A stretch of DNA of 64,000 bases from positions 1,824,001 through 1,888,000 of the forward strand of contig OY761158.1 of the NCBI GenBank assembly GCA_963664405.1, given 5' to 3'. The first letter of the stretch is position 1. Each line of letters opens with the position of its first letter. This DNA is from Thermoanaerobaculia bacterium (GTDB lineage Bacteria; Acidobacteriota; Thermoanaerobaculia; Multivoradales; Multivoraceae). Positions 2,357 to 42,832 of this stretch are shown here, in pieces. The position numbers and the translations under genes were made by a program. The notes under the pieces were generated by a model. That model made no database searches. It saw only the letters and a program-made list of their open reading frames with translations, and had not been told where the DNA came from.

Positions 2357-2989
2357 CTATGGCAACCGGATCAATTCACCGCTGGCATCGATGGAGACCT
2401 CGACTTCTTTGGCGACGCGCAACAGCAGCCTGCTCGGGTCCTCGAGACCCCACTCGACATAAGGCACCAAGAAAGTGGTTCGCGCGTGTAACCGACCCGC
2501 CCTGGAGTCGAGGGTCACCGGCAGGGTGAGTGAGTGCTCCTCCCCGTGGATCCGCAGTCGCGCCAGCACCCGGATGACGCCGCCACTCCCCGGCTCGAAG
2601 CTCCCGACCAATCCATCGACAATGAGCACGAGCTCCGGGAAATCATCGCTCTCCAGCACCCGCTGATGCATCTGCTTGTCTCGCCTGGCGTTCCCGGTCT
2701 CGAAAGAACGCGCGTCGACCACCACCTGACCTTCTGCCTCGCCGCGCTCGGTATCGATGCGAAGGCTCCCTCGAAGCGCCTGCGCCGTGCCGTGGACCTT
2801 GTGGAGAGTGGAATCGACCACGAACCTGATCTCGGTGGCGGCGACGTCGAGATCGAAGCTGTAGGTCTGCGCCGCGAGTGAGCTCGGCACCACGAGCGCA
2901 AGAAAAGCAAGGACCCAGCTTCTAGACCAGCGTTTCCAAAGTTCGCGCACATATCTCGGCCCCTTCGGACACGCTGGTCTAGTCTTCAT
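2357..2989 (-). CDS. YceI-family periplasmic lipid/polyisoprenoid-binding protein; signal peptide carries an in-frame MITE remnant
   Basis: IRFVVDSTLHKVHG, SFETGNARRDKQM and LRIHGEEH motifs. Removing the 57-bp insert restores MKTRSWVLAFLALVVPSSLAAQ. Confidence 0.85.
   Translation of the reverse strand: MKTRPACPKGPRYVRELWKRWSRSWVLAFLALVVPSSLAAQTYSFDLDVAATEIRFVVDSTLHKVHGTAQALRGSLRIDTERGEAEGQVVVDARSFETGNARRDKQMHQRVLESDDFPELVLIVDGLVGSFEPGSGGVIRVLARLRIHGEEHSLTLPVTLDSRAGRLHARTTFLVPYVEWGLEDPSRLLLRVAKEVEVSIDASGELIRLP
2922..2982 (-). mobile_element. internally deleted MITE copy (family A), CTAG-flanked, net +57 bp (19 codons) inside yceI
   Basis: CTAGACCAGCGTTTCCAAAGTTCGCGCACATATCTCGGCCCCTTC...ACGCTGGTCTAG; same ends as the copies at 33714, 37951 and 40616. 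Confidence 0.9.
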
Positions 2990-3895
2990 GGAAGCGGTAG
3001 CGCAGCACCGTGCGAATGTTCAAGAGTCCGTCGGTCTCGGAGGAGGTGGCCGGAGGTCGCACCACCTCCAGGGGACTATAGAAAAGCTCGATCCCCAGGC
3101 GCGTCCTCTTCGTCGTAGGAACGGTGATGCCGGCAAGGATCCCCCAGGTGTCGCCGTCGCTACGAAGCAACGTGCGATCGATAACGCCAAAGGTAGCAGC
3201 GTTGACCTGGAACTCCTGGTCGAAGTGATTGATGAAGCCGCCAAAGTGAAGCTCCGACCGCCGCCAAGAGCGCAGCCGATAGCCAGCACCCAAGTACAGG
3301 CCCAGGTGCTCGAGAGTGGCCGTATCGTTGGACCGTGATCGGCAACCAAAGGCGTTCTGCGGAGATCCCGGCGGGAACGAGGCCTCTTCATCTCCGCATG
3401 TGAAGTCGCCCTCGATATCTCCGACTTGGCCATGCGCTCTCAACCCCAGCGACCAACGCTCTCCGTCGACCAGGTTGCGCTCGAGAGCCATAGAGAAGAG
3501 GCTGGGCTTCATCCCCTCTAGCGTCACCGGTGGAAGGTAGCTGGCCTCGAGAGAGAATCGGAAAGGCAGCCCCAGAGTCACCCGCGGCCGCACCAGCACC
3601 GGGAGTTTGTTCAGATCCTCCTCTTTGGTCCCCTCGAAGCCGACCGTTCGTTGCGCAGTGTCGAGATGCGGAATCTGCGTGAGCTCGACTCCGACGTCGA
3701 CGGACCAGGCCTTTCGTACTTCAGGGGGCCCTATCGGCGTCAGTAGGGAGGCCGAATTGAAGTACTTCATAGCCCAGCTCTCCGGCCGATCGAAGTCGAT
3801 ATCTTCGGTCACTTCGATCACCGGCTGAGCCGGCGCCGGCGCAGTGATCACTAGGAGCGACAGAAGGCCGAGACAGAGCCTATTGATGAACAGTG
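2979..3895 (-). pseudogene. exported/outer-membrane-like protein whose N-terminal signal region is split by the IS30 composite; remaining 5' part at 5840-5889
   Basis: The frame continues upstream of GTG 3851 as LFINRLCLGLLSLLVITAPAPAQ to the IS end. Joining across the GTG TSD gives MPTDRRARPVCKGRCPLFINRLCLGLL... The C-terminus has a beta-barrel-like amphipathic pattern (LNIRTVLRYRF). Confidence 0.65.
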
Positions 3896-3973
3896 CTTGG
3901 GTTCAAGGGGTCGTCGCAACGTTGCCTTGGTGAGCAGAGTGTACAAACTCATCGAAGACTTCGGCAGGGGTTC

Positions 3974-4387
3974 TGAGCGGTCACGGTTTCGTGGACACCA
4001 AGTTAAGCCCCATCGGGGCAGTTCCTATTCTGCATCAGTTCGGGTAGTCAGCTTCGGACGAGGCTGTGCGAGGTTCGGGGAGCGCAGCCTCCCTTCGGAT
4101 CCGACCGCCGGTCGCGCGTGAGTTCACGCTGCCCCTTCGAAGGCCTCGGGGCTCAGGAATCCGAGCGTCGAATGCTGGCGTCTCAGGTTGTAGAACACTT
4201 CGAGGTAAGAAACCGCTTCGTCGTGAGCTCGCTGACGAGTCTCGAAGGGTCGGTCCCAGACCTCGGTCTTGAGACTGTCGAAGAAGCTCTCCAAGACCGC
4301 ATTGTCATAACAATTTCCGACGCCGGACATGCTGCAGCGAAACCGCAGCTCAGCCAGCCGATCCTGGTAAGCCTTCGAGGCGTACTG
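3974..4387 (-). pseudogene. IS3-family right-end remnant with transposase C-terminus
   Basis: QYAS..Y...SMSGVGNCYDNAVLESFFDSLKTE...FYNLRRQHSTLGFLSP is an IS3 integrase-core tail; IS3-like end TGAGCGGTCACGGTTTCGTGGACACC at 3974. Confidence 0.85.
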
Positions 4388-4394
4388 CTTGGGT

Positions 4395-5792
4395 TCAAGG
4401 AGTCGTCGCAGCGTTGCCTTGGTGAGCAGAGTGTACAAGCTCATCGAAGACTTCGGCAGGGGTTCTCCAGCCGAGGGTCTTGCGGGGTCGGCCGTTGAGT
4501 GCGAGCGCGACCGCGGCGAGGTCGTCGCAGGAGTATCTGACAAGGTCGGTGCCCTTCGGGAAGTACTGGCGTAGTAGTCCGTTGGTGTTCTCGTTGGTGC
4601 CCCGCTGCCAGGGGCTGTGCGGGTCGCAGAAGTAGATCGCGAGGCCGGTATCGACGCGGAGTTGAGCGTGTTGAGCCATCTCGGCGCCCTGGTCCCAGGT
4701 CAAGGACCGGCGGAGCTGCTCGGGCAGCGTGGTGATTGACACCGCGATCGCGTCACGGACGGCTTCGGCGCCGTGCCCGGCGAGGGCCGGCCCGTTCTTC
4801 ACCCTCGATTCGGTCCCGTGCCCTTCCATGCGGGGCAGGTGCAGCAGCATCGTGAACCGCGTAGTGCGTTCGACGAGGGTCCCGATCGCTGAGCTCTCGA
4901 GCCCGACGATCAGGTCGCCTTCCCAGTGACCCGGCACGGCCCTGTCGCCGGCTTCGGCGGGGCGTTCGCTGATCATGATCTCCGGAGTTACAAATTTCTT
5001 GCCTCTCCCCCGGGTTCGCGCATGCGGCACTCGTAGCGCTCGCCCGGTTCGCAGGCACGCGACGAGCTCGCGTTTGAGGGCTCCTCGACCTTGGATGTAG
5101 AGCGCTTGGTAGATCGCCTCGTGAGAGATCCGCATCGACTCATTATGGGGGAAATCAATCCGAAGCCGGTTCGAGATCTGCTCCGGACTCCAGGATTTCG
5201 CCCAACGCCGATCCTGGCGACGGCCGTGCCGACGGCCGATCCAACGCACATCCGGACCCGGCACCAGCTCCCCGTCAGGCCTTGCGATCACGCCGGCGAG
5301 GCGGTTCTGCACGTACTCACGCAAGGCATCGTTCGCGGCAAGCTTGGAGACCTTCGGACGGCTGGCGCGCCGCTCCGCGTGCCACTGCGCAGTCGTGGCC
5401 CGATAAGTTACGGCACGGCTGCGAGTCGCCGCGTTGCGGCGCAGCTCCCGCAAAATCGTCGACGGTGAACGACCCAGGCGGCGAGCGATCTCACGTACCC
5501 CAACATGCTGAGCGTGAAGGATGGCGATCTCTTCACGCTCGGCGAACGACAGATAACGCCCCGACACCGGAGCCAACGAGATAGGTCGCATTCCACCAGC
5601 TTGCCTGAACCATCTCGACCCGACAGCCGGCGACACCCCAGCCTCTGTTGCGGCGTCCTCGCTGGACGCCCCACGAGCGATCGTCTCCCAGAACCGGATC
5701 CGGTCCTCGCGCCGCGCTGTCGAGGGCCGGCCAGGTGACCGCATCTGGCCACGCATCGCTCGAATCGCACCCTGACACTTGCCAACTCCCAT
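4395..5792 (-). CDS. IS30-family transposase
   Basis: LSFAEREEI, HTH (RSPSTILRELRRN), WSPEQI, GHWEGDL, LTWDQG.EM, PWQRGTNENTNGLLRQYFPKG and LNGRPRKTLGW motifs. Confidence 0.95.
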   Translation of the reverse strand: MGVGKCQGAIRAMRGQMRSPGRPSTARREDRIRFWETIARGASSEDAATEAGVSPAVGSRWFRQAGGMRPISLAPVSGRYLSFAEREEIAILHAQHVGVREIARRLGRSPSTILRELRRNAATRSRAVTYRATTAQWHAERRASRPKVSKLAANDALREYVQNRLAGVIARPDGELVPGPDVRWIGRRHGRRQDRRWAKSWSPEQISNRLRIDFPHNESMRISHEAIYQALYIQGRGALKRELVACLRTGRALRVPHARTRGRGKKFVTPEIMISERPAEAGDRAVPGHWEGDLIVGLESSAIGTLVERTTRFTMLLHLPRMEGHGTESRVKNGPALAGHGAEAVRDAIAVSITTLPEQLRRSLTWDQGAEMAQHAQLRVDTGLAIYFCDPHSPWQRGTNENTNGLLRQYFPKGTDLVRYSCDDLAAVALALNGRPRKTLGWRTPAEVFDELVHSAHQGNAATTP

Positions 5793-5955
5793 CGAAACAC
5801 CTCCATCACGAGATGTTGCGACGACCAGTTGAATCCGCCGTGGACACCTCCCTTTGCATACGGGCCTGGCCCTACGATCGGTCGGCATGTTCAGAGATCG
5901 GCCCTTCATTGGAGCGACCGCTATGCTAGCCTCTCGTGTTCGCAAGGGCTCAATT

Positions 5956-7080
5956 ATGACAGAGGTGGAAAGCTCGACAGGCTCAGACGCCCAGACCGCG
6001 ACCCGGGCGGGCTCCTTGTGTGTGGAGCCGTTCCTGCATCTCCAACCAGGGCGAATCTACAACCCTCTGACCGACCTCGCCGTCGAGCCTCTCGACCCCG
6101 GGTACACCGAGCTGCAAGCCCTCGCCCTCGGCCAAACGAGCGCCGCCGCCTTGCCTGCCGGACTGCGAACGAGTCTGATAGAGACAAAGTGGTTGGTCGA
6201 AGACGGCCCCGAGCTGGCAAGCCGCTTTCTTCTCAAGTACGTATCCCTCGAAGCCCACTCGGTCTGCAATCAAGGGTGCTATTTCTGCCCGGTCTCGATC
6301 GAGCGCAGAGAAGACCACTTCATGCCAATGGAGCTCTACGACGAAATCGCACGCCAGCTCGGGGAGCTGAGAGGGACGATCGAAGGCGTGTCGATGATCA
6401 ACTACAACGAGCCGACCGTCGACAAGCGCTTTCTCGAGCAGGTCGGGGTGCTCAAGGGGTACGGCCTCCCGCCGGCAGTGTTGACCAACGGCACCGGCCT
6501 CACTCCCAAGAGGGTAGATGCGCTCATCGAGATGGGCGGACTGGTTTACCTGTCGGTCAATCTCTCCACCTTGGACCGCGAGCGCTATGCCGCGGATCGC
6601 GAAGGCGATCACCTCGAGCTGGTGCTCTCTAATCTCGACTACATGAAAGATCTGGCCCTTGCCGAGACCATGGAAATCGTCGTTCTCGGGGTCGGCGACG
6701 AGATTCACCGCGACGACTTCACGAAGATCGCCGAACGCTTCGCCGACAGCCGTTTCGTGGTCAAGTTCTATGAGGTCATGAACCGCACGGGAAACGTTCC
6801 TTTGGGCTTGAAGCCGGAGCAGCGAGTCAAGAAGCTCCATGGCTGTGACCAGACCGGCTCCCGGCCTCTTCAGTGGCTCCACATCACTCCGCGAGGCGAG
6901 TGCGTCATCTGCTGTCAGGACTACCACGAGCACTACGTCGTTGGAGATCTGACCAAGCAGTCTCTTATGGAGGTCTTGACCGGGCCTGAGATCGCCAGAA
7001 TGCGCCGCTGGACATACGGCCTCGAAGAGGCTCCCGACGACTTCATCTGCCGCGACTGCATCTACGCTTTGACACGATGA
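5956..7080 (+). CDS. radical SAM protein with C-terminal SPASM/twitch domain
   Basis: CxxxCxxC (CNQGCYFC), NYNEPT, TNGTGL; C-terminal C...CC...C..C cysteines. Confidence 0.88.
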   Translation: MTEVESSTGSDAQTATRAGSLCVEPFLHLQPGRIYNPLTDLAVEPLDPGYTELQALALGQTSAAALPAGLRTSLIETKWLVEDGPELASRFLLKYVSLEAHSVCNQGCYFCPVSIERREDHFMPMELYDEIARQLGELRGTIEGVSMINYNEPTVDKRFLEQVGVLKGYGLPPAVLTNGTGLTPKRVDALIEMGGLVYLSVNLSTLDRERYAADREGDHLELVLSNLDYMKDLALAETMEIVVLGVGDEIHRDDFTKIAERFADSRFVVKFYEVMNRTGNVPLGLKPEQRVKKLHGCDQTGSRPLQWLHITPRGECVICCQDYHEHYVVGDLTKQSLMEVLTGPEIARMRRWTYGLEEAPDDFICRDCIYALTR

Positions 7081-7205
7081 CATCTGGAGCCCTGGTCTCC
7101 TATCTGATCCCTGACGACAGCCGCCCCGAGCTGGGGAATCGGCCCTAGTGGCGCGATCGTTGCTCATCGGCAACACACAAAGGGGCCGATGCTACGATCC
7201 CCCCG

Positions 7206-8525: not shown

Positions 8526-8908
8526 TGTGTGGAACGAGCGGCCTCTTCAGAATCGCACTGATAGCTGTTCCCGCCCTGGCTGCGGCGACCGCCTTGGCGC
8601 AAAGCGAAAGCACACCGAGGATCGACCGCAGCAGCGGTCTCGCCATCGCGCCCGGCTGGGAGCTGGTCAACGAACGCTGCACAGCATGCCATTCGACGGC
8701 CCTCATCAGGCAGACGCGGGGCGGTCGAGAGGACTGGCTCGGCCTCATCCGCTGGATGCAAGAGACGCAGGAGCTGGAGACTTTCGAAAAGGAAGTCGAG
8801 GACAGGATCCTCGCCTATCTCTCCGCGAGTTACGGTCTCGACGGTCGAAGGGGCCGTCGTCCCCCGCTGGCGCCGCATCTGATGCCCCCGGTCCATACCC
8901 GCCCCTGA
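8525..8908 (+). CDS. monoheme cytochrome c partner (SorB-like)
   Basis: Signal peptide, CTACH heme motif and WLGLIRWMQETQ; ATG overlaps the upstream TGA. Confidence 0.8.
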   Translation: MCGTSGLFRIALIAVPALAAATALAQSESTPRIDRSSGLAIAPGWELVNERCTACHSTALIRQTRGGREDWLGLIRWMQETQELETFEKEVEDRILAYLSASYGLDGRRGRRPPLAPHLMPPVHTRP

Positions 8909-8949
8909 GAACGCGGCCCATTCGAGCTAGTGTCCTGTTAGGAGCCGAA

Positions 8950-11334: not shown

Positions 11335-11362
11335 TATCTACGCGACCCATAGGAAGCTACGA

Positions 11363-11558
11363 ATGCGCCATGGACTCATCCTCTCACCGCACCCTCGATC
11401 CAGGGTCAGGTCGCTGCCGCCGGCCGTGCCGAGGCGCGTGGTTTTCACTCGGTCTGGGTCACCGAGTCCACCCGCTCCTCTACTCACCCAGTGCGGGAAT
11501 GAGCCCCGAGCGCATCGAAGAGAATGTGAACGCCATCATCGACACAGTAGGACAATAG
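11363..11558 (+). pseudogene. collapsed remnant of an LLM-class (luciferase-like) oxidoreductase
   Basis: MRHGLILSPH, then a shifted frame PSIQGQVAAAGRAEARGFHSVWVTES (LLM N-terminus), joined to a third-frame C-terminal-like tail PLLYSPSAGMSPERIEENVNAIIDTVGQ*. Confidence 0.6.
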
Positions 11559-11570
11559 GAGAGATCCGAG

Positions 11571-12335: not shown

Positions 12336-12336
12336 G

Positions 12337-15015: not shown

Positions 15016-15127
15016 GGCTGAAGGTCCGAGAACTGTGCATGAGTGAACGGCGGCTATATTAGCGCGGGGGAGATCCGAGTCGAGCACGCGATGAGCGATG
15101 CGCCTCCGCCTTTGCTATGTTGGCGCG

Positions 15128-16387: not shown

Positions 16388-16394
16388 CCAGGCA

Positions 16395-25377: not shown

Positions 25378-26451
25378 ATGAAATGGTCCTGGAGTCTCGG
25401 CAAGATCGCCGGGATCGAGCTCAAGGTCCATGCGACCTTCTTCCTGTTGGTCGCCTGGGTGGGCTGGACTCACTGGGCGGACGGCGAATCGCTGGCGGCG
25501 GCGATCGCGGGCATTACTTTTATTCTCAGTCTCTTCGCCTGCGTGGTCCTGCACGAGCTCGGCCACGCCTTGACGGCGCGCCGCTACGGAATCCGCACCC
25601 GCGACATCGTGCTGCTACCGATTGGGGGCGTAGCCCGACTCGAGCGCATTCCTGAGGACCCGCGCCAAGAGCTCTGGGTCGCGGTGGCGGGACCCGCCGT
25701 CAACGTGGTCATCGCCACAGTTCTCTTCACCATCATCTCCTTGACCGGATCCTGGCAGCCGGTGGGCGGGCTCACCGTCAGCGGCGGTTCGTTTCTCGAG
25801 AGAATCGCCATCGCCAATGTCATTCTGGTCATCTTCAATCTGATCCCCGCCTTTCCGATGGACGGTGGACGCATGCTTCGCGCTGTTCTGGCGATGCGCC
25901 TCGAGTACGTAAAGGCAACCCAGATCGCGGCGACCGTCGGTCAGGGCCTCGCCTTCGTCTTCGCTCTGATCGGTCTCTGGGCGGCGCCGTTCCTACTCTT
26001 CATTGCCTTCTTTGTCTGGATCGGCGCCAGCCAGGAAGCCAGTATGGTCCAGATCAAGCACGCCCTCGGGGGCATCCCGGTCGGCCGGGTGATGATCACC
26101 GAGTTCGTCACTCTCCACCCGGAAGAACCGCTGACACGCGCAATAGCCCTGACTCTGGCGGGGTCCCAGAAAGACTTCCCTGTCGTTGTCGGAGACCGGG
26201 TAGTGGGCGTGCTCACGCAGTCGACATTGATGCGTGCGCTGGCGGAGAAGGGGGAGCACGCCCAGACTGCCTCGGTGATGGAGCAGAGTTTCGAGCTCGC
26301 CGACGTCTCGGAAATGATCGAGCCGGTCTTCATCCGCCTACGGGCACGTAGATGCTCAACCCTGCCGGTACTCGAAGCGGGCCGACTGGTCGGTCTCCTC
26401 ACGCTGGAGAACGTGGGCGAGTTCCTCAGCCTTCAATCTGCGATGCGCTAG
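25378..26451 (+). CDS. site-2 protease (M50) with CBS domains
   Basis: HELGH, AGPAVN, NLIPAFPMDGGR and two CBS-like C-terminal repeats. Confidence 0.92.
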   Translation: MKWSWSLGKIAGIELKVHATFFLLVAWVGWTHWADGESLAAAIAGITFILSLFACVVLHELGHALTARRYGIRTRDIVLLPIGGVARLERIPEDPRQELWVAVAGPAVNVVIATVLFTIISLTGSWQPVGGLTVSGGSFLERIAIANVILVIFNLIPAFPMDGGRMLRAVLAMRLEYVKATQIAATVGQGLAFVFALIGLWAAPFLLFIAFFVWIGASQEASMVQIKHALGGIPVGRVMITEFVTLHPEEPLTRAIALTLAGSQKDFPVVVGDRVVGVLTQSTLMRALAEKGEHAQTASVMEQSFELADVSEMIEPVFIRLRARRCSTLPVLEAGRLVGLLTLENVGEFLSLQSAMR

Positions 26452-26615
26452 TGGGCCGTAACACTCGAACGTTTAGTGGCTGAGTGAGTCATTCGTGGTC
26501 GAGATCAAGGCGCGCTGACGCAGGCATAGCGGGGACTATGTCGGGGAAGCGTAACGCAGAGATCGGCCGCGAGGGCCGCTCAGGCGCTAAACGTTTGGGT
26601 GTTACGGTCCACTAA
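26448..26615 (+). mobile_element. MITE family B: ~36-bp TIRs, TA duplication, same hairpin core as family A
   Basis: C-TA-GTGGGCCGTAACACTCGAACGTTTAG ... CTAAACGTTTGGGTGTTACGGTCCAC-TA-A; core GGCGCGCTGACGCAGGCATAG...CTATGTCGGGGAAGCGTAACGC. Begins at the stop codon of the M50 gene. Confidence 0.85.
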
Positions 26616-28587: not shown

Positions 28588-28609
28588 CCGAGGGGGACAC
28601 ACACCGAGC

Positions 28610-33681: not shown

Positions 33682-33706
33682 AAACCGGCCGCGCTCTGGA
33701 GCGCGG
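33682..33706 (-). terminator. probable intrinsic terminator of the ABC importer operon
   Basis: Hairpin CCGCGCTC-TG-GAGCGCGG (33689-33706) followed on the minus strand by CCGGTTTT; sits between convergent genes. Confidence 0.5.
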
Positions 33707-33713
33707 ACGAAGT

Positions 33714-33878
33714 CTAGACCAGCGTTTCCAAGGTTCGTGCACATAGCTCGAGGTCATTCTGTTCGCTGGCCAGGCGCGGCGACGCAGGCATATTGGGCAA
33801 TATGTCGAGGAGGCGCAACGCCGCCAGCGGGCAGAAGGGGCCGAGATGTGTACGCGAACTTTGGAGACGCTGGTCTAG
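33714..33878 (+). mobile_element. MITE family A, intergenic copy at a stop codon (net +161 bp)
   Basis: CTAGACCAGCGTTTCCAAGGTTCG...CGAACTTTGGAGACGCTGGTCTAG; the right CTAG contains the TAG stop of the ABC ATPase gene. Confidence 0.92.
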
Positions 33879-34855
33879 AGATCGAAATGGCAGGCCACGG
33901 TGTGGGCTTGCTCGCCGGGGGCCGCGACTTCGCGTAGCGTCGGCACCTCGGTACGACAGCGGTCCTCGGCATGGGGGCAGCGGGGGTGGAAGTGGCAGCC
34001 GGTCGGCGGATCGATCGGCGACGGGACGTCACCCTCGAGGACCTGGAAGCCGGAGCGCTTGGTAGGGTCCGGAGCCGGGATCGCCGCAATCAGGGCCTGG
34101 GTGTAAGGGTGTTTGGGGCGTTCGTAGACGTCGTCCGCGCCCGCCGTCTCGACGATCTTACCGAGATACATGATGGCGATGCGATCGGAGACGTGCTTTA
34201 CCACTGCCAGATCGTGAGAGATGAAAAGGTAGGAGAGCCCGAGATCCTTCTGCAACTCGAGCATCAAGTTGAGGATTTGACTCTGAATCGAAACGTCGAG
34301 GGCGGAAACCGGCTCGTCACAGACAACTAGCTTGGGATCGAGCGCGATCGCGCGGGCAATGCCAATGCGCTGGCGCTGCCCGCCCGAGAACTCGAAGGGG
34401 AAGCGATCCAACGAGGTCTCCGGCAGTCCGACCTTCGCAAGGAGTGCGTGGACAAGCTCTTTTCGGTCCTTTTCGGTACCGACCTTGTGGACGACGTAGG
34501 GCTCCTCGAGGATCTTGGCCACGCTATGCCGAGAGTTGAGCGAGTCGGCGGGGTCCTGAAAAATCATCTGCAGCTCACGCCGGACGCCTTTCAGCTCGCG
34601 ACGGCCCAGTTTCACCAAGTCGGTTCCATCGAAGACGACACTCCCGGCCTGGGGACGGAGCAGACGGACGATCGAGCGGCCCAAGGTGGACTTGCCGCAT
34701 CCGGACTCCCCGACCAAGCCGAGGGTCTCCCCCGCACCCACTTCCAAAGCAACATCATCGACGGCCTTACAGACCGCGGTCGCGGTCATGAACACACCAC
34801 CGCGCACCGGGAAGTAGGTCTTGAGGCCGTTGACCTCGAGCAGTGGGGAGCTCAT
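33875..34855 (-). CDS. oligopeptide ABC transporter ATP-binding protein (OppF-like)
   Basis: GESGCGKST, FSGGQRQR, CDEPVSALD and oligo_HPY tail (HPYT, GCHFHPRC). Confidence 0.93.
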   Translation of the reverse strand: MSSPLLEVNGLKTYFPVRGGVFMTATAVCKAVDDVALEVGAGETLGLVGESGCGKSTLGRSIVRLLRPQAGSVVFDGTDLVKLGRRELKGVRRELQMIFQDPADSLNSRHSVAKILEEPYVVHKVGTEKDRKELVHALLAKVGLPETSLDRFPFEFSGGQRQRIGIARAIALDPKLVVCDEPVSALDVSIQSQILNLMLELQKDLGLSYLFISHDLAVVKHVSDRIAIMYLGKIVETAGADDVYERPKHPYTQALIAAIPAPDPTKRSGFQVLEGDVPSPIDPPTGCHFHPRCPHAEDRCRTEVPTLREVAAPGEQAHTVACHFDL

Positions 34856-35907
34856 GCGTCGCCGTCTCTCCGCGTGCCGGCGATCTCCCGCCAGCGAAAG
34901 CAGCTGACCTGGTGATCTCCCTCCACCACCTGGAGCTCGGGCAGCTCCGCGGCGCAGCGCTCTTCGCGGTGCGGACAGCGATTCTCGAAACGACAGCCCG
35001 AGGGCAGGTCCAGCAGGCCCGGCACCATACCCTCGATCGTGTGAAGAGGCTGTTTGCGCGGATTTTCCAATCGGGGAATGGCCTCGAGTAGGCCGCGCGT
35101 GTAGGGATGACGCGGCTCGGCAAAGATCTCTTCTACCGACCCGGTCTCGGCGATGCGCCCCGCATACATGACCACCACGTCATCGCAGGTCTGAGCGATC
35201 ACTCCCAGATCGTGAGTAATGAGGAGGATCGACAGCCCCATCTCTTCTTGCAAGTCGCTCATCAGCTTCAAGACCTGAGCCTGGATGGTCACATCCAACG
35301 CGGTGGTCGGCTCGTCGGCGATGATGAGAGCTGGGCTATTGGCCAGCGCGATGGCGATCACTACGCGCTGGCGCATGCCGCCGGACAGCTGATGAGGGTA
35401 CTCGGCGTAACGGATCTCCGGCGACGGGATGCCGACCTGCCCCAGTAGCTCGATCGACCTGCGCATTGCATCCTGCGCTGTCAGGTCCTGATGCAACAGC
35501 AGCGCCTCGGAAAGCTGTCGACCTACCGGGTGCACCGGATTGAGCGCCGTCATCGGCTCCTGGAAGATCATGCCGATGCGAGCGCCGCGGATCTTTCCCA
35601 TCTCCTCCAGAGACAGATCGAGCAGATTCTCGCCGTCGAGGAGCACTTCGCCACCCAGAATCTGCCCCATGGGCTGGGGCAGAAGACGTGTGATCGAAAG
35701 TGCGGTGACCGTCTTGCCACAGCCCGACTCCCCCACCAAGCCAACCGTCTTGCCGCGAGCGACTTTGAAACTGACGCCGTCGACAGCGTTCACCCGCCCC
35801 ACATCGGTGTCGAAGGCGGTGACCAGGTTGCGCACCTCGAGAAGATCGTCCGAGGTGGCGCTCCGATCTGCGGTTGCGTCACTCACTCCCGGGCCGGTAC
35901 TTGTCAT
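34852..35907 (-). CDS. oligopeptide ABC transporter ATP-binding protein (OppD-like)
   Basis: [29 protein letters not shown] and GCRFENRC. Confidence 0.93.
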
Positions 35908-38143
35908 AGGTGAAGACGCCGGGCGGGAATGTCTTCCCTGACCGCTTCGCCGCCCGGGTCTCTTCCTTCAAATCCTCGTCGATCCAGTGCACCCAGTGAT
36001 CCTCGTAGTGGCCGGCCAGCTTCACACTGAAATCGTCGGGCCAACCCACCCAGCGCCACGACCCCATGCGCAGAAAGGGCTGCACGAAGCCGGGAATGAA
36101 GATCGCCGCTTCGTCGACGATCTCCTCCATCTGACGCGACAGCTCGAGCATCTCCCCTGCATCGTCCGAGCCACGATAACGCTCGATCAGCGGATCGAGC
36201 TCACGGCTGGCGAAGGAGTGAAGGTTGTTGGTCTGGGTCTTGACCTTGCGTTCCGGGTTCACAGACCCGTCGGCAAGAAACGCTTTATCGTAGGCGTTCA
36301 CCGAATGGTAGGTCTCCCAGTAACGCGGGTACATCTCCGGACTGACCGCGAAAGCGGTGAAGACGAGATCGTGCTTCTTCTCTTGCGCCTTCTTGAACGC
36401 AGCGGTGGCGTCGAGGACCTCGAGCCGGTACTCCAGACCCGCCTGCGCTGCTTCTTCTCTCAGGATGGTGAGGATGTCCTTGAAGCTCTGGTAACCGGTG
36501 GTCAAGGTAAAAGAGAGGCGCTGCCCTTGGGCGTTGACCAGGATGCCGTCAGACCCACGCTCGTGGAACCCGGCCTTGGCAAAGCTCTCGAGGGCTTTCT
36601 CGACCGAGTAGGAGCGAGCCTCGAGCGTAGGATGAGTGAACTCTCCGTACCCATCCGAGGAGGTCCGCATGCGGGTGTAGGCACCGCGGAAGTACTTTTC
36701 GATCACCAAGTCCCAGTTGGTGGCGAAGTGGAGACCCTGGCGAATGTCGCGGTCCTCCAGCAGCGGCTGCGCCGTGTTGATCCAGAGTCCCCAAGTCGGC
36801 CGCGGGACGTCGTTATAGAACTCGTGCTTGTGAACATAGCCGTCCCGAACCAGAGGATGGTCGTCGGCGAGCTTGTCGTACCAATACTCGGGCTCTCGCA
36901 TCCGCGAACTATCCAGCTCCCCACGCTTGAACACCTCGAAGGCCTTCGCTTTGTCGCGAATGATCACGAAGTGAATGCGCTCGGGGTTGAACCTGTAGCG
37001 CCAGAACTTGTTCTCCCTCGCCCACCAGTTGTCGACGTGGGTGAAGGTGAGCGATCGTCCTTTGTGAATGTTCTCTGGACGGATCTCATAGGCACCCGTT
37101 GTCGGCATGAAACGCCACTGATAACGGTCGACGAAATCGTCGCCTAGACTCTTGAAGAAGTGCCGCGGAAGAGGCCGTAGCTCGAGGACGCGAGCGTTCA
37201 TGTCGGGCTTGGCCTCGGGCACCGAGACCGAGAAAGTGAGCTCGTCGTAGCGGGCTACCTCGGTGAAGTTGCGGTTGAAGAAATTGTTCGAATACGGCGC
37301 ACGGATGTATTTCGACTGGTAGAAGAAGAACGCGAAGAGAGCATCATCGGTGGTGACCGGATGCCCGTCCGACCAGCGAGCAGCGGGGTTGAGTCGGACA
37401 TACACCGTTCTCGTCTCGCGATCGATCGCCCACTCCTTCGCCAAGGCGGGGTAGTAGCGGTGCCCGTTGGGCCCGATATTGGTTACATTGGGATGGCGTT
37501 GGCCATAGGTGTAGAGCGTTTCGTCCTGTAGATAGCTGCGGAACGAGCCGTTGGCATCGGGGCCAACGGTACGTAGGGTGCGCGGAAAATCCGCCAGCGC
37601 CATAAATAGGGTGCCGCCCCTCTTGGCCTCCGAAGACCCGATATCGGGCAGGTCCATTCCGTCGTCCCATTCGAGGTCGGCGGGAATGTCCTCCGGTGTC
37701 CCGAAGCGAAAGAGCTTGGGAAACTCTCCTGCCGCCTGCCGCGAGTCGAGCTCCTCCTGGGTGATCTCTCCGCGCTCGAAGGCCTCGCGTACTCGAGGAG
37801 GCATCGAGACCTTGGTGCGGTAGAACTCCTCGATCTCCGCGGTGTTGTCTCTCCCTAGGTCGGGAAAGTCCATGTCTGCGCCCGCGTCGCCTGCTCCACA
37901 ACCGATCAGGAATGACCCCAGCGACACCGCCGAGATGAAGGTCCAGAGCGCTAGACCAGCGTTTCCAAAGTTCGCGCACATATCTCGGGCCCTTCTGCCC
38001 GCTGGCGTCGTTTCGCCTCCTCGACATATTGCCCAATATGCCTGCGTCAGCGCGCCTAGCCAGCGAACAGAATGCCCTCGAGCTATGCAGCACGAACTTC
38101 GGAAACGCTGGTCTAGATCTCGATTTGGCATTTGTGCCCTCAT
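35879..38143 (-). CDS. family-5 extracellular solute-binding lipoprotein (YejA-like) with a 54-aa in-frame MITE insert in its signal peptide
   Basis: AKRGGTL, ARWSDGHPVT.DD, TGAY, NTAQPLLEDRDIRQ. Removing the insert gives MRAQMPNRDLALWTFISAVSLGSFLIGC (lipobox). Confidence 0.85.
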   Translation of the reverse strand: MRAQMPNRDLDQRFRSSCCIARGHSVRWLGALTQAYWAICRGGETTPAGRRARDMCANFGNAGLALWTFISAVSLGSFLIGCGAGDAGADMDFPDLGRDNTAEIEEFYRTKVSMPPRVREAFERGEITQEELDSRQAAGEFPKLFRFGTPEDIPADLEWDDGMDLPDIGSSEAKRGGTLFMALADFPRTLRTVGPDANGSFRSYLQDETLYTYGQRHPNVTNIGPNGHRYYPALAKEWAIDRETRTVYVRLNPAARWSDGHPVTTDDALFAFFFYQSKYIRAPYSNNFFNRNFTEVARYDELTFSVSVPEAKPDMNARVLELRPLPRHFFKSLGDDFVDRYQWRFMPTTGAYEIRPENIHKGRSLTFTHVDNWWARENKFWRYRFNPERIHFVIIRDKAKAFEVFKRGELDSSRMREPEYWYDKLADDHPLVRDGYVHKHEFYNDVPRPTWGLWINTAQPLLEDRDIRQGLHFATNWDLVIEKYFRGAYTRMRTSSDGYGEFTHPTLEARSYSVEKALESFAKAGFHERGSDGILVNAQGQRLSFTLTTGYQSFKDILTILREEAAQAGLEYRLEVLDATAAFKKAQEKKHDLVFTAFAVSPEMYPRYWETYHSVNAYDKAFLADGSVNPERKVKTQTNNLHSFASRELDPLIERYRGSDDAGEMLELSRQMEEIVDEAAIFIPGFVQPFLRMGSWRWVGWPDDFSVKLAGHYEDHWVHWIDEDLKEETRAAKRSGKTFPPGVFTYDKYRPGSE
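37951..38116 (-). mobile_element. MITE family A, full copy, net +162 bp (54 codons), in frame in a coding sequence
   Basis: CTAG at both ends, ~21-bp TIR GACCAGCGTTTCC(A/G)AAGTTCG, central CATATTG-GG-CAATATG hairpin. Confidence 0.93.
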
Positions 38144-38153
38144 AGGTCGCCAG

Positions 38154-39245
38154 TCACATATAGACCGTGAACTTCTTCGGGTCGAAGGCCTCACGCACGG
38201 CCTCGCCGACGAAGTTCACCAGGGTCAAGATGAAGACCAGGGTGACGAAAGCGGAAGAGATGATCCAAGGGGAAGTGGTCAGGCTCGCCGTTCCCTGCTT
38301 GAGCAGCTCGCCGATCGAGGGAGTCGGCGGCGGAAGCCCCCAGCCGAGGAAGTCGAGGGCGGTCACGGCGACGATCGCGTTGATGACGGTCAGCGGCACG
38401 AAGGTCACGATCGTCGAAAGCACATTGGGAATGATGTGGCTGAAGATGATCCGCGAAGTTGAAGCACCGAGAACGATGGCAGCCGCCGTGTAATCCCTCT
38501 CCTTCTCGCGATAGGTGGCGGTGCGCATGTAGTAGGTCATCGATGTCCACGAGAAGAGCACCATGATGGCGAGCAGAATCGTGATTCGGGTCGGGATATC
38601 GAAGCTGGTCGGAATCACCGAGAAGACGATGATCACCATGTAGAGGAAAGGGATATTCGACCAGATCTCGATCAGACGCTGCACAAGAAGATCGAAGACG
38701 CCTCCGAAATAGCCCATCATGCACCCTAGAGAAATCCCGATCAGATAGGTCAGCGACATGAAGGCCAGCGCAAAAAGAATAGCGGTGCGAAAGCCGAAGG
38801 CGAGGCGCGCAAAGATGTCGCGGCCGGTCGAGTCGGTGCCCAGATAGTGCCTCGAGGCCAGCGAAGGCGGCGCAGGCTTGAACACTCCTTCGTAGGCATC
38901 GTTCTCATAGGCGTCGTAGGGAACGAGAGGCATGAGCACCAGGTTCTCGCCGCCTTCGCGCTCGAATCTCCGTTTGAGATCGCGATAGTCGACCGGAGTC
39001 AGCGCATCTACACCCACCGATCCGAACTCGTCACCCAGCCGCACCCGAGTGTAGGTGGGGAACGACCACTCACCCTCGTAGCGCACCGCCAGTGCACGAC
39101 TATTGATGAACACCTCACCCACCAAAGAGAGAGCGATAAAGACCACCAGGATCAGAAACGAAAAATAGCCACGTCGTATTTCTCTGAAGCGCTTCAACTT
39201 CTTTGCAGTAAGAGGGTTGAGCTTCATCGCCCAGGTCCGGCTCAA
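38154..39245 (-). CDS. peptide ABC transporter permease (YejE/OppC-like)
   Basis: HYLGTDSTGRDIFARL, EAA-like loop DYTAAAIVLGAS and LDFLGWGLPPPTPS. Confidence 0.9.
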   Translation of the reverse strand: MSRTWAMKLNPLTAKKLKRFREIRRGYFSFLILVVFIALSLVGEVFINSRALAVRYEGEWSFPTYTRVRLGDEFGSVGVDALTPVDYRDLKRRFEREGGENLVLMPLVPYDAYENDAYEGVFKPAPPSLASRHYLGTDSTGRDIFARLAFGFRTAILFALAFMSLTYLIGISLGCMMGYFGGVFDLLVQRLIEIWSNIPFLYMVIIVFSVIPTSFDIPTRITILLAIMVLFSWTSMTYYMRTATYREKERDYTAAAIVLGASTSRIIFSHIIPNVLSTIVTFVPLTVINAIVAVTALDFLGWGLPPPTPSIGELLKQGTASLTTSPWIISSAFVTLVFILTLVNFVGEAVREAFDPKKFTVYM

Positions 39246-40267
39246 GAGAAGCGAATGCGCGGATCGATCGCGGCAACGAGCGCGTCGGAGATGATGTTGC
39301 CCACCAGCAGCGCCAAGCTCGACGCGAAGACAACCCCCATGACCACCGGGTAGTCTCGATCGAAGACGGCGGTCAGGCCGAGCAGACCGAAGCCGTTGAT
39401 GTCGAAGATGGTCTCGATCAGAAACGAACCGCTGACGATGAGCAAGACGTTCTGGCCGAAGGTGGTGGCGATCGGAATCAGCGAATTTCGTAACGCATGC
39501 CCGGTGACCGCCTTGCGAAACGAAACCCCCTTGGCGACGGCGGTGCGGACATAGTCGGCAGACAGGTTGTCCATGAGGTGGTTCTTCATCAACTGCGTGG
39601 TTACCGCAAAGCTACCGACGAGATAGCAGCACAACGGCAGGACCGCATGGTGCAACACATCCAAGACCTTGCCCCAGGGACTCAGAAGGTCGAAGTCGAA
39701 ACCGATGAACCCACCCATCGGGAACCACTCGAGGCGAGCGGCAAAAAAGAAAAGCAGAAGACTTCCCATCACGTAAGGAGGAACCGCATACCCCATGAAG
39801 ACGAAGATCGAGGTGACGTTGTCCATCGCACTGCGATGTTTGATTGCTTTCACCACCCCGAGCGGGATGCACACCGAGTAGGTGATGATTACCGTGGCCA
39901 AGCCGAAGAACAGAGAGATGGGCAACCGAGAGCGCATGATGTCGACTACCGGCTCGTTATACCGGTAGGACGAGCCAAGATCACCTCGGAGGACCTTGCC
40001 CAACCATTCGACATAGGAGACGAGCCACGGTTTGTCGAAGCCGTAGTACTCCTTCAGTTGCTGGATCTGCTCATCCGAGAGCGCCTGTCCCTGCCCGGAG
40101 AGCGAATTCGAGCTGCCGCCGCCAGTAGCATCGAGCTGTTGCGCTTCCATGATTGCCCGCTCGAGCGGACCTCCCGGCACCACCCGGGTGATCAGGAAAA
40201 CGACAATTGTGATGCCAAGTAGGGTCGGGGGAATTAGCAAGAAGCGGCGGATGAAGTAGTCCCGCAT
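39242..40267 (-). CDS. peptide ABC transporter permease (YejB/OppB-like)
   Basis: YFIRRFLLIPPTL, YGFDKP, GDLGSS, DYVRTAVAKG and DPRIRF. Confidence 0.92.
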   Translation of the reverse strand: MRDYFIRRFLLIPPTLLGITIVVFLITRVVPGGPLERAIMEAQQLDATGGGSSNSLSGQGQALSDEQIQQLKEYYGFDKPWLVSYVEWLGKVLRGDLGSSYRYNEPVVDIMRSRLPISLFFGLATVIITYSVCIPLGVVKAIKHRSAMDNVTSIFVFMGYAVPPYVMGSLLLFFFAARLEWFPMGGFIGFDFDLLSPWGKVLDVLHHAVLPLCCYLVGSFAVTTQLMKNHLMDNLSADYVRTAVAKGVSFRKAVTGHALRNSLIPIATTFGQNVLLIVSGSFLIETIFDINGFGLLGLTAVFDRDYPVVMGVVFASSLALLVGNIISDALVAAIDPRIRFS

Positions 40268-40300
40268 GGACCACGGGAGGCTAGCACAGCAGGCCCCGAA

Positions 40301-40606
40301 TCAAGGGTGGCCCAGCCCGGGAGTCGGGCGCGCTCCTAGCCCTTCCTGTCGCTGTCGCCAGCGTTCTCGCGCTTTCTCCGCTTCTTCTTCACGGTTCTTG
40401 GGCGCAACGGTGGCCACCAGCCGAGACAGCAGCTGCGCGGTGACCTCGGCGATAGCGTCTACGGCTTCTTCGAAGGCGGCCTCATTGGCGCGCGACGGCT
40501 TGGTAGAGCCGCTCACCTTGCGAACATACTGGAGCGCTGCGGATCGGACTTCCTCATCCGTGGCGGCGGGCTCGTAATTGTGGAGAGTACGGATATTGCG
40601 GCACAT
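40301..40606 (-). CDS. DUF2277-family small protein
   Basis: MCRNIRTLHNYEPAATDEEVRSAALQYVRKVSG...NEAAF...PKNREEE. Confidence 0.85.
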   Translation of the reverse strand: MCRNIRTLHNYEPAATDEEVRSAALQYVRKVSGSTKPSRANEAAFEEAVDAIAEVTAQLLSRLVATVAPKNREEEAEKARERWRQRQEGLGARPTPGLGHP

Positions 40607-40615
40607 TCTCCAATA

Positions 40616-40781
40616 CTAGACCAGCGTTTCCAAAGTTCGTGTGCAATAGCTCGAGGTCATTCTGTTCGCTGGCCAGGCGCGCCGACGCAGGCATATTGGG
40701 CAATATGTCGAGGAGGCGAAACGCCGCCAGCGGACAGAAGGGGCCGAGATATGTGCGCGAACTTTGGAAACGCTGGTCTAG
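40616..40781 (+). mobile_element. MITE family A, full copy (net +162 bp) in a divergent intergenic region
   Basis: CTAGACCAGCGTTTCCAAAGTTCG...CGAACTTTGGAAACGCTGGTCTAG. Confidence 0.93.
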
Positions 40782-40846
40782 GCCAAGTCGCCTGCGAGCC
40801 TGGTAGCCTGCGTGCACCAACCCAGACACCCAACAGGGGGCAAGCC

Positions 40847-42832
40847 ATGACCCAACTAGACCAGCGTTTCCAAAGTTCGTGCTGCATAGCTCGAGGTCAT
40901 TCTGTTCGCTGGCTAGGCGCGCTGACGCAGGCATATCGGGCAGCCGCCATCGACTCGTATTCGCGGCCAATTCTCACCTCTGTAGGCCCCCTGCTCGCCC
41001 TGGTGCTCGGTGTGACGGCGCTGGCGTGCAGCTCCGGCGAGCCCACCGCTCCACCGGCGGAGACCAGCTCGAGCTCGGAGAGGCCGGCTCCGAATCCACT
41101 GCGCAGCGCCTACTTCGGCGACCTTCACGTGCACACTCGCTATTCGATGGACGCCTACATCTTCGATGTCAGGGCCTCGCCCGACGACGCCTATCGATTC
41201 GCCAAGGGCGAGCCTCTCGATCATGTCAGCGGCCATCGCATGCAGCTCCAGACTCCCTTCGATTTTCAGGCGGTCACCGACCACGGCATCCTGCTCGGCG
41301 CTCTGCCGGCAATGGATGACCCGGAGGACCCGCTCTACAACGAGCCTATCGCCAAGGAGCTGCGTGAGCTGGGGCCGGCGGAAGGGTTTCAGCGCGGCCG
41401 GGAAGCCTTTGAAGGCGGAGAGTTCGAGCAGATGGATTACTCCCATGCCACGCGCTCGGCCTGGCAGCGGATCATCGAGGCGGCCGAGCGTCATAACGAT
41501 CCCGGCCACTTCACCACCTTCGTCGCCTATGAGTACACCTCGACCGCCCCTGATCAGGGCAACCTCCACCGCAACGTGATCTTTCGCGGCAGCGAGGCAC
41601 CCGAAATGCCGCTCAGCTCCGCGGACTACCCCGACCCGGAGGATCTGTGGCGCTGGCTCGACGACCTACGAGCCCAGGGCATCGAAGCGTTGGCGATTCC
41701 ACACAACTCGAACGGCAGCAACGGCCAGATGTTCCGCCTCGAGACCCTGTCCGGCGAGCCTCTCGACGCCGACTATGCCGATCTGCGCATGCGCAACGAG
41801 CCTTTAGTCGAGGTCACCCAGGTCAAGGGTACGTCCGAGGTACACCCGCTGCTGTCCCCAAACGACGAGTGGGCTGACTTCGAGATCTTCCCCTACCGCA
41901 TCTCCACCCGGCTGGACAGCCAGCCGGCCGGCAGCTACGTCCGCGATGCCTACGTCAGCGGGTTGATCCTGGAGGAGACCAAGGGTTTCAATCCCTTCCG
42001 CTTCGGTCTCATCGGGTCGACCGACACCCACAACGCGGCAGGGACCCCGGACGAGTGGCACTTCCACAGCAAAGTCGGCGCCCGCGACGGTACCCCTCAG
42101 CGCCGCGGATCGGTGCCCCTGGACGAGCCCGGAGAGGACGGCGAGCCGGCCTACGTCGATGGCTATTTCCACCTCTGGGGCGCCGCCGGTGTCGCCGGCG
42201 TCTGGGCGGAGGAGAACACCCGCGAGTCGATCTACGATGCTTTCCGGCGCAAGGAGACCTTCGCCACGACCGGGCCTCGCATCCAAGTCCGATTCTTCGC
42301 CGGTTACGACCTCGCGGAGGATCTCGCCTCGGCTCCCGACAAGGTAGCCAGGGCCTACGAAGGTGGAATACCGATGGGGGCCGATCTGAGCGCCGATGGC
42401 GAGCGAGCGCCGCGTTTTCTGCTGTGGGCGATTCAGGACCCCAACAGCGCTCCGCTCCAACGTCTGCAGATCGTCAAGGGCTGGGTAGACGACGAGGGGG
42501 GCCACGATCAGGTTTTCGACGTCGCCTGCTCCGACGGCGCGCAGCCCGACCCGGAAACCCATCGCTGCGCCGACAACGGCGCTAGCGTGGATCTTTCTGA
42601 TTGCAGCTTCTCGCGTGATTCCGGCGCGGCGGAGCTGAGCGCGGTATGGAGTGACCCCGGCTTCGAGCCCGCCCAGCACGCCGTCTACTACCTGCGAGTG
42701 ATCGAGAACCCCACTTGCCGTTGGTCGACATGGGACGCCTTGAGGGCGGGTGTGGAGCCGCGCGCCGACTTACCTACGACCATCCAAGAGCGAGCCTGGT
42801 CGTCGCCGATCTGGTTCGTTCCCGGAGGCTGA
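40847..42832 (+). CDS. DUF3604-family PHP-like lipoprotein with a half-MITE in frame at its N-terminus
   Basis: AYFGDLHVHTRYSMDA, VTDH, YEYT, NLHRNV, IPHNSN, EVTQVKGTSE and QERAWSSPIW; lipobox ALAC; SD AGGGGG before ATG 40847. Confidence 0.85.
   Translation: MTQLDQRFQSSCCIARGHSVRWLGALTQAYRAAAIDSYSRPILTSVGPLLALVLGVTALACSSGEPTAPPAETSSSSERPAPNPLRSAYFGDLHVHTRYSMDAYIFDVRASPDDAYRFAKGEPLDHVSGHRMQLQTPFDFQAVTDHGILLGALPAMDDPEDPLYNEPIAKELRELGPAEGFQRGREAFEGGEFEQMDYSHATRSAWQRIIEAAERHNDPGHFTTFVAYEYTSTAPDQGNLHRNVIFRGSEAPEMPLSSADYPDPEDLWRWLDDLRAQGIEALAIPHNSNGSNGQMFRLETLSGEPLDADYADLRMRNEPLVEVTQVKGTSEVHPLLSPNDEWADFEIFPYRISTRLDSQPAGSYVRDAYVSGLILEETKGFNPFRFGLIGSTDTHNAAGTPDEWHFHSKVGARDGTPQRRGSVPLDEPGEDGEPAYVDGYFHLWGAAGVAGVWAEENTRESIYDAFRRKETFATTGPRIQVRFFAGYDLAEDLASAPDKVARAYEGGIPMGADLSADGERAPRFLLWAIQDPNSAPLQRLQIVKGWVDDEGGHDQVFDVACSDGAQPDPETHRCADNGASVDLSDCSFSRDSGAAELSAVWSDPGFEPAQHAVYYLRVIENPTCRWSTWDALRAGVEPRADLPTTIQERAWSSPIWFVPGG
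40856..40942 (+). mobile_element. MITE family A, left half only, starting at codon 4 of the DUF3604 gene
   Basis: CTAGACCAGCGTTTCCAAAGTTCGTGCTGCATAGCTCGAGG...GACGCAGGCATATCGGGCA, then diverges at the central loop. Confidence 0.88.

Follow-up and report, generated by a model that had tools for sequence, protein, structure and literature searches.

Insertions of a miniature inverted-repeat transposable element (MITE) that we call family A lie, in the same orientation and in frame, within the signal-peptide n-region of all three genes that carry one in a 64,000-nucleotide stretch from a Thermoanaerobaculia bacterium (assembly GCA_963664405.1, contig OY761158.1, positions 1,824,001 to 1,888,000 of the forward strand). 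This whole stretch is referred to below as the window, and positions are counted from its first letter. Together with four cases found in other proteins and loci, there are seven independent insertions of this kind from at least three genomes, all of them sense (three in frame +0 and four in frame +2), and the comparison with unoccupied target sites supports the signal-peptide n-region as a strongly favoured home for coding copies. We think it probable, if by no means certain, that family A is a frame-neutral MITE that survives only at permissive sites, and that its sense peptides fit the n-region and would leave the protein together with the signal peptide.

Coding copies in the window and in other proteins

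The complete element is 166 nt long, carries a 24-nt terminal inverted repeat at both ends (0–1 mismatch) and adds a net 162 nt, or 54 codons, to an empty CTAG site. Searches with a full copy (blastn) and with a profile built from eight copies (nhmmer) gave concordant results and placed five family-A loci in the window, which has a G+C content of 62%; the window copies are 92–94% identical to each other. Two of them are intergenic. The copy at 40616..40781 (plus strand), full-length and in the reference orientation, separates the divergent DUF2277 (40301–40606, minus strand) and DUF3604 genes, and the one at 33714..33878 (plus strand) lies between convergent genes and is 165 nt long, one base having been lost, as had been noticed from the sequence alone.

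The other three are coding. A 61-nt remnant (2922..2982, minus strand), which has lost its interior and retained both terminal CTAGs, lies in a yceI-family gene (2357..2989, minus strand; Pfam YceI, 1e-18, residues 46–202). It runs from codons 3/4 to codon 22 in frame +2 and adds a net 57 nt (19 codons); the encoded N-terminus consists of MKT, 19 element residues, R, the hydrophobic core WVLAFLALVV and then a SLAA-Q cleavage-type motif. A full-length copy of 166 nt (37951..38116, minus strand) lies in frame +0 inside the signal peptide of a lipoprotein (gene 35879..38143, minus strand; Pfam SBP_bac_5, 8e-40), a family-5 solute-binding protein (SBP5) whose gene is part of an Opp/Dpp/Yej-type ABC operon with neighbouring permeases and ATPases. 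The insertion is at codon 10 counting from ATG 38143 and at codon 6 counting from ATG 38131, which has the better Shine-Dalgarno sequence, and the protein begins with MPNRD (or MRAQMPNRD), followed by the full element (+162 nt, 54 codons) and then by ALWTFISAVSLGSFLIGC with the lipobox LIGC. Finally, a half copy (40856..40942, plus strand), consisting of the left 87 nt (29 codons), occupies frame +0 from codon 4 of a DUF3604 lipoprotein gene (40847..42832, plus strand; Pfam DUF3604, 1.7e-224, profile positions 2–591 of 591). Here MTQ is followed by the half element and by AAIDSYSRPILTSVGPLLALVLGVTALAC, in frame with the lipobox ALAC. This gene has no in-frame ATG, GTG or TTG from ATG 40847 to the hydrophobic core, and the corresponding database protein (P0003, 661 aa) starts at the same ATG 40847.

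All three copies thus lie 3–10 codons into the gene, directly ahead of the hydrophobic core of a Sec or lipoprotein signal peptide, in frame and in identical orientation relative to the host gene, and none of the three genes has a usable start between element and core. As the Pfam matches span whole domains in each case, none of these host genes looks like a wreck. A sequence-only reading of the window had placed the three insertions at the same codons, with the same lengths, in signal N-regions and in the sense orientation; the sequence, the Pfam matches and the N-terminal analysis bear this out for every one of them, with codon 10 of the SBP5 gene being counted from ATG 38143.

For additional cases, the open frames +0, +2 and −0 of the element were translated and searched against protein collections for longer proteins. 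This gave six matches among 391 candidates for frame +2, four among 2877 for frame +0 and nine among 1500 for frame −0; a representative library gave 10 further frame +0 matches, mostly short open reading frames (ORFs) or C-terminal run-ons. Four additional independent signal-peptide cases were found: a sulfatase, a second DUF3604 protein, an amidohydrolase and a TPR protein. The sulfatase (Pfam) of locus L009 begins with MRTLT, a full element in frame +0 and then GLICLVALALSAC. The second DUF3604 protein (P0012, taken to be from the genome of the window) is a paralogue 59% identical to P0003, with a different insertion site and a different frame (+2), and continues with RLLAPILGVVVAAALTGAC. 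The amidohydrolase (P0015, likewise taken to be from this genome) reads MST, the element in frame +2, a basic stretch and the core AIALLLAGAV. The orthologous TPR proteins P0014 and P0016, from other sources, start with MA and the element in frame +2, followed by RTVLFIVFMLTVA...AAQ. Signal peptides were judged by a home-made rule combining hydropathy, charge and motifs. In all seven cases a hydrophobic core lies 0–16 residues past the insert (mean Kyte-Doolittle hydropathy 1.9–3.2), with a cleavage signature that is a lipobox in four cases and an AAQ/PAQ-type site in three.

Coding copies are also found elsewhere in proteins. Four clear internal insertions, all in the antisense frame −0, were detected: between hydrophobic segments of a polytopic membrane protein (P0018) and within a PIN_3 domain, which is split into two matches (P0021), both taken to be from the genome of the window; in the linker between FAD_binding_3 (5–359) and Rng_hyd_C (483–598) of a FAD monooxygenase from another genome (P0020); and in P0019. 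In P0001, taken to be from the window's genome, a frame +0 insert occupies residues 143–197 of 214, near the C-terminus. The statement of the sequence-only reading that selection keeps only insertions in the signal N-region was therefore too strong, since the internal copies in P0018, P0021 and P0020 and the near-C-terminal copy in P0001 exist.

The tally for coding copies is seven in n-regions, four internal, one clearly near a C-terminus (P0001) and seven doubtful C-terminal run-ons (P0004, P0006, P0007, P0009, P0013, P0017 and P0022), which for the most part look like ORFs that continue into a neighbouring copy from a gene or from a frameshift. Nine proteins could not be classified and were left out of the tally: P0002, P0005, P0008, P0010 and P0023–P0026, which have no Pfam family and are short or resemble Arg-rich ORFs in a wrong frame, and P0011, an unrelated repeat protein. 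Of the eight clear coding copies taken to be from the window's genome, five or more are in n-regions. Complete Pfam domains surround the inserts in the YceI, SBP_bac_5, amidohydrolase, FAD_binding_3/Rng_hyd_C and PIN_3 proteins and in both DUF3604 proteins.

Target sites, reading frames and orientation

As a background, the 59 CTAG sites of the window that lie outside elements were placed on a gene map made of ORFs confirmed by Pfam. Sixteen of these sites are intergenic and 43 genic, including four C|TAG stops and five sites in the first 20 codons. None of the 59 unoccupied sites in the 64-kb window falls in a signal n-region; the sole candidate, in an arylsulfotransferase gene, was rejected as lying upstream of the likely start. 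Occupied sites are in the n-region in three of five cases versus none of 59 for the unoccupied ones (Fisher p = 2.4e-4), and seven of 19 coding copies, doubtful ones included, versus a generous background of 5% gives p = 2.3e-5. Similarly, the host is exported in 7/7 N-terminal cases, versus no more than 8/40 among other genes, which is the number passing our lax signal rule (0.2^7 = 1.3e-5). Because the coding copies are not distributed like the background CTAG sites, the outcome that the sequence-only reading had itself named as damaging, its n-region claim survives. The frame +0 query contained the insert of the window SBP5 protein, yet that protein was not among the matches; this insert seems to be avoided by gene callers, so that the database count would, if anything, be an undercount.

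The empty background and the excess of exported hosts also make it very improbable that no selection is involved and that the pattern reflects only the supply of target sites (rare CTA and AGA codons near gene starts), ORFs over-extended through an element in the 5' leader, or chance in a small sample. The three window genes without a usable start between element and core speak against over-extension, and a palindromic target with near-identical element ends offers no basis for oriented insertion. What such an explanation can draw on is the somewhat raised frequency of CTAG near gene starts (the 5/43 genic sites in the first 20 codons), the predicted start of P0012, which lies 15 residues before the element and looks over-extended, and the forcing of the sense orientation at NCT-AGA targets by the stop in frame −2.

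The reading frames of the element account for its neutrality in genes. Two of the six frames are closed by the terminal TAGs, and these are the same frames in which a coding CTAG is impossible. This leaves four frames that can be used in a gene. The copy at 37951 has no stop in any of them, and the reference copy has none in +0, +2 and −0. All six unshifted full copies keep +0 and −0 free of stops, across subfamilies with an identity of only 79–82%, and most copies are interrupted by a TGA in frame −2. Of 5000 dinucleotide shuffles, just 4.0% had at least three open frames. With these open frames and 162 nt gained, a full copy that enters a coding CTAG would almost always leave the ORF uninterrupted. 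The element preserves the frame by its very make-up, as do the Rickettsia palindromic elements (RPEs), ERIC and YPAL.

The encoded peptides differ between the two orientations. Those of the sense frames are rich in Arg and Lys and have no hydrophobic stretch (net charge +3 in frame +0 and +11 in frame +2, with a maximum 10-aa hydropathy of ~0.5 in both), whereas the antisense peptide of frame −0 has a net charge of −1, a hydrophobic stretch (1.8) and an acidic gene-proximal end. According to excerpts of a review, the n-region of Sec and lipoprotein signal peptides is by itself basic and non-hydrophobic (PMC9360617).

Orientation follows location, with seven sense and no antisense copies in n-regions and no sense and four antisense copies at internal sites (p = 0.003). 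Part of this is forced, as four of the targets are NCT-AGA, for which the antisense frame −2 contains TGA in most copies. Restricting the comparison to CTA-G (frame-0) targets, where both orientations are open, leaves 3/0 versus 0/4 (p = 0.029). Since the ends of the element are near-identical and the target is palindromic, oriented insertion is not expected, and we infer that orientation is random at insertion and sorted afterwards.

Copies at stop codons fit the same picture, in which copies are seen where they cost least. At a C|TAG stop the duplicated target restores the stop codon and the protein is thereby left untouched. The terminal CTAG of the element provides the TAG stop of an adjacent gene in four of 12 family-A copies versus four of 59 unoccupied sites (p = 0.024). 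In the window, the right CTAG of the 33714 copy (33875–33878) ends an ABC ATPase gene (33875–34855, minus strand), and a CTAG of the yceI copy (2979–2982, minus strand), the same one that forms yceI codons 3/4, ends the upstream gene for a 290-aa protein (2979–3851). The other two are in L001 (160–163, a 120-aa gene) and in L010 (2001–2004, a dehydrogenase-like gene).

Probable translation through the insert and its proposed fate

That the host proteins are translated from the native start through the element, remain competent for export and are cleaved is what their sequences lead us to expect, and removal of the insert by signal peptidase is plausible. Neither the DUF3604 half copy nor the L009 copy has an in-frame start inside or after the element. 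The coding copies were claimed to stay in frame even after decay, and all three that have changed in length do so: the changes (−105 nt in yceI, the 87-nt half copy of DUF3604 and +78 nt in P0016) are multiples of three (chance 0.037), and frame-breaking changes are found in intergenic copies (−1 at 33714 and +13 in L010). The orthologues P0014 and P0016 differ by three substitutions and two indels, all of them in the signal peptide, and are identical over the ~92 aligned mature residues.

The main rival to read-through is a restart within the element. Translation would then begin at an internal ATG or GTG in the gene-proximal arm, only ~9–10 element residues would be present in the protein and the rest would serve as 5' leader. 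Five of the seven copies contain a Shine-Dalgarno-like AAGGGG followed 7–9 nt further on by ATG (frame +0) or GTG (frame +2), ~10 codons before the gene-proximal end; the two starts overlap (37979–37981; 2948–2950, minus strand), so both open sense frames have a possible internal start, except in the L002/L009 subfamily, which has none. The copies at 37951 and 2922 share this motif with the reference copy, and the long n-region may therefore not be made at all. A restart in frame +2 would yield the basic n-region RELWKRWS and then R, and the V of ...PRYV(R/C)ELWKRWS is retained in P0012, P0014 and P0015, with a V at the same position in P0016. A strong hairpin beside the native start should moreover disfavour initiation there, and the missing SBP5 protein in the frame +0 search suggests that the public gene call starts further downstream. 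We nevertheless consider a restart unlikely as the general explanation, because the DUF3604 half copy lacks the gene-proximal arm, the L009/L002 subfamily has no in-frame ATG or GTG there, and the changes of −105 nt (yceI) and +78 nt (P0016) lie upstream of the internal start, yet keep the frame. The internal start would also be located within the hairpin stem, and in frame +0 it would give the peptide MCANFGNAGL, which has no positive charge. Restart may well operate alongside read-through.

The hairpin itself is the basis of another proposal, already raised from the sequence alone, that a structure just past the start codon adjusts how exported proteins are translated or how stable their mRNA is, and that copies are kept for this adaptive role. 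The full element does fold into a very stable structure (−123.4 kcal/mol for 230 nt, z = −10), and in Neisseria and Yersinia, according to excerpts of the review PMC2229807, hairpins of MITEs affect mRNA from genes next to them. In two of the three window coding copies, however, most or all of the hairpin has been lost (z = −2.3 for yceI and +1.4 for the DUF3604 half copy), and we found no support for tuning of expression. A hairpin that is equal in both orientations leaves the sense bias unexplained; there was no sigma-70 promoter-like or terminator-like site in or around the two copies scanned, and no Rfam family matched positions 33600–41100. This explanation therefore appears highly unlikely.

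Several observations weigh against the preferred reading, that a frame-neutral MITE is read through and survives at permissive sites. Besides the internal start motifs, the hairpin of the SBP5 copy (about −120 kcal/mol) starts ~14 nt after the native start and may hinder initiation. P0012, P0014, P0015 and P0016 are known as protein only, and later GTG or TTG starts are possible in them. The reading frame of the L009 sulfatase (1143–1243) breaks after 312 codons into ORFs of 312 and 215 aa, reflecting either a frameshifted pseudogene or an indel error in the assembly. The home-made signal rule also passes Rossmann folds and permease helices (8/40 other window genes). The window copies are, at their level of mutual identity, fairly young, and weak selection may not yet have acted on them. 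The sample is small, with at least 10 loci from the genome scan.

In the preferred reading, family A would insert at the TA within CTAG without orientation preference, add exactly 54 codons and lengthen a protein instead of breaking it. The observed pattern would then be what selection leaves, because near-identical terminal repeats and a palindromic target give insertion no preferred orientation. Copies would survive in intergenic DNA, at C|TAG stops, in protein loops, linkers and tails and, most often among coding copies, in the signal n-region. There the sense peptide would make a positive n-region longer, with the hydrophobic core and the cleavage site behind it still intact, and signal peptidase I or II would discard it with the signal peptide, leaving the mature protein unchanged. 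The near-neutral, partly hydrophobic antisense peptide occurs only inside proteins.

A broader version can be offered tentatively, and we would regard it as doubtful in its full extent. In it, the n-region would be a general safe harbour for frame-neutral mobile elements, and family A would be shaped for it, its two sense frames giving basic, non-hydrophobic peptides that suit export. Signal peptidase would remove the insert, making it a protein-level analogue of an intron or intein that has no machinery of its own. The gene-proximal arm would hold a spare Shine-Dalgarno sequence and start, and the insert might also throttle synthesis or export.

Family A, its relatives and comparison with known systems

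The 24-nt terminal repeat of family A has eight matches in the window (0 expected). Counting filled sites only, complete copies are flanked by TA at both ends in nine of nine cases and by CTAG at both ends in eight of nine. A scan of genome contigs for the terminal repeat gave at least 10 loci, and none of those listed is in the window's genome. Among the loci listed, six loci of three other assemblies, which are Acidobacteriota or Vicinamibacteria metagenome-assembled genomes (MAGs) and one unclassified MAG, contain seven further family-A copies. Loci L003, L006 and L008 have the identical 24-nt sequence as one end of a 1284-bp element with a gene for a 392-aa transposase (DDE_3+HTH_32+HTH_29). 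The other end of this insertion sequence (IS) is an imperfect repeat, and the L006 copy has CTAG on both sides. In L005 the same 24-nt end stands alone, just upstream of a gene. These four loci derive from a MAG labelled Alphaproteobacteria.

Because it has its 24-nt end in common with this DDE_3 transposase element, family A is, to judge from sequence, a non-autonomous IS630-type MITE. Its size of 166 nt and lack of a transposase gene agree with this, and its frames encode peptides of 54–55 aa that have no Pfam match. No IS630-type transposase gene is present in the 64-kb window, and family A is presumed to be mobilized in trans by a transposase of this type. IS630 is said, going by the titles of work by Tenzen and Ohtsubo from 1990 and 1991 cited in PMC2170065, to prefer TA within CTAG. 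A blastn search gave no plasmid match to the element. A sigma-54-like interpretation of the terminal repeat was dropped, the spacing being wrong on inspection by eye.

A related MITE that does not belong to family A, also of 166 nt, lies at 26449..26614 (plus strand) and has its own terminal repeats, TAGTGGRCCGTAACAC (two matches versus 0 expected), around a core homologous to that of family A. Its left TA is within the TAG stop of an M50 peptidase gene and its right end is 31 nt before the start of folD. The combination of a shared core with different ends suggests families that swap ends around a common core.

Some further features of the copies may be recorded here. The DUF2277 gene (start codon at 40606, minus strand) has the copy at 40616 in its leader, 9 nt upstream and beside the ribosome-binding site, in the opposite orientation. 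This copy and the one at 40856 are in the same frame and exactly 240 nt (80 codons) apart, so that from 40580 onwards one ORF crosses both of them and continues into DUF3604, whose public protein begins at 40847. L002 contains a second, partial family-A copy (2390–2497, 109 nt, 84% identical) in the opposite orientation, 224 nt past the full copy and in the same divergent intergenic region. P0016 has an extra in-frame insertion of 26 aa within its element-derived n-region, and P0025 and P0026 have tandem repeats of ~26 aa directly before a half element, which hints at secondary expansions within or beside copies. CTAG as such is scarce in the window, with 70 sites versus 139.6 expected from dinucleotide shuffles, and 11 of the 70 are within or at the ends of MITE copies.

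The window also contains other mobile elements. Two IS30-like transposase genes (HTH_38 and rve; 4395–5945 and 44826–46223, both minus strand, in the regions 3885–5945 and 44316–46223) are each followed by the same 300-nt repeat (3895–4194 and 44326–44625, 100% identical) and by 90-nt repeats that are present four times, so these regions are two copies of a larger IS or composite element. An IS21-type pair is found in 57298–60730, with IstB at 57298–58068 and an IstA-like gene at 58062–59831 (minus strand), followed by a Mu-transposase_C fragment on the plus strand.

The permissiveness of insertion sites has so far mostly been argued from protein structure. Family A provides a clean natural experiment because its orientation sorts with the site of survival (sense in 7/7 n-region cases, antisense in 4/4 internal ones). 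If the pattern holds genome-wide, signal peptides can absorb 19–80 extra residues ahead of the hydrophobic core, and the copies lend themselves to testing what limits the length and charge of the n-region set on Sec and lipoprotein export. Neither start codons nor predicted signal peptides would then be reliable close to such repeats, SBP5 being seemingly called with a different start.

The sequence-only reading had likened the insertions to inteins, and the comparison stands as an analogy, in that a selfish insertion would be removed after translation and the mature host protein left unaltered. Its literal part does not stand, as the Pfam searches of the proteins with an insert gave no Hint or intein family and the insert has only 54 aa. 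Inteins self-splice by means of a Hint domain and rejoin their flanks, whereas removal of family A would be a by-product of signal peptidase cutting downstream. A different likeness is with the extended signal peptide regions of autotransporters, long N-terminal extensions that precede a normal n-h-c signal peptide and are compatible with Sec. Such an extension is a motif that is conserved and passed on vertically, and a function has been proposed for it, whereas the long stretch ahead of the n-h-c signal peptide in family-A hosts is a mobile DNA insertion.

Among MITEs, RUP of pneumococcus and the Correia/NEMIS elements of Neisseria are described as IS630/Tc1-mariner derivatives in excerpts of PMC2229807, and resemble family A in the TA target, terminal inverted repeats of 9–24 bp, a long stem-loop transcript and presumed mobilization in trans by IS630-type transposases. 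RUP, however, has stops in all six frames and is intergenic, and the 155-bp Correia element is also closed, whereas family A is open in 3–4 of its four usable frames.

RPEs are palindromic repeats of ~100–170 bp with ORFs, found in frame in genes, at tolerated positions, and in intergenic DNA (excerpts of PMC2229807 and PMC10969869). Family A is likewise palindromic with open frames and has both in-frame genic and intergenic copies; as in RPEs, its net length is a multiple of three, its frames are free of stops and it lies inside otherwise intact conserved genes. RPEs differ in their hosts, obligate intracellular bacteria rich in A+T, where they lie within mature enzymes that are often cytosolic, and in having no established transposase partner, whereas family A has 24-nt repeats in common with an IS630-family IS, uses CTAG/TA sites in genomes of 62% G+C and is mostly found in cleavable n-regions.

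The enterobacterial elements ERIC/IRU and YPAL/RU-2 have contiguous ORFs that are fused in frame to host ORFs (Delihas, 2007; PMC2229807, in the excerpts retrieved), as in family A, and the 168 bp of YPAL correspond to 56 codons. In the Yersinia fusion YPO1552, according to the same excerpts, a predicted signal peptide is partly formed by the MITE. There the hydrophobic MITE peptide is itself part of a putative new signal peptide, whereas family A repeatedly places a basic peptide ahead of the pre-existing, complete signal peptide of conserved exported proteins. We found no report of recurrent MITE insertion in signal n-regions or of orientation sorting in searches of the full-text literature, the YPO1552 fusion being the nearest case. 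In-frame MITEs are thus an established kind of element since the discovery of RPEs; what appears to be new in family A is the recurrent use of the n-region and the sorting of orientation by location.

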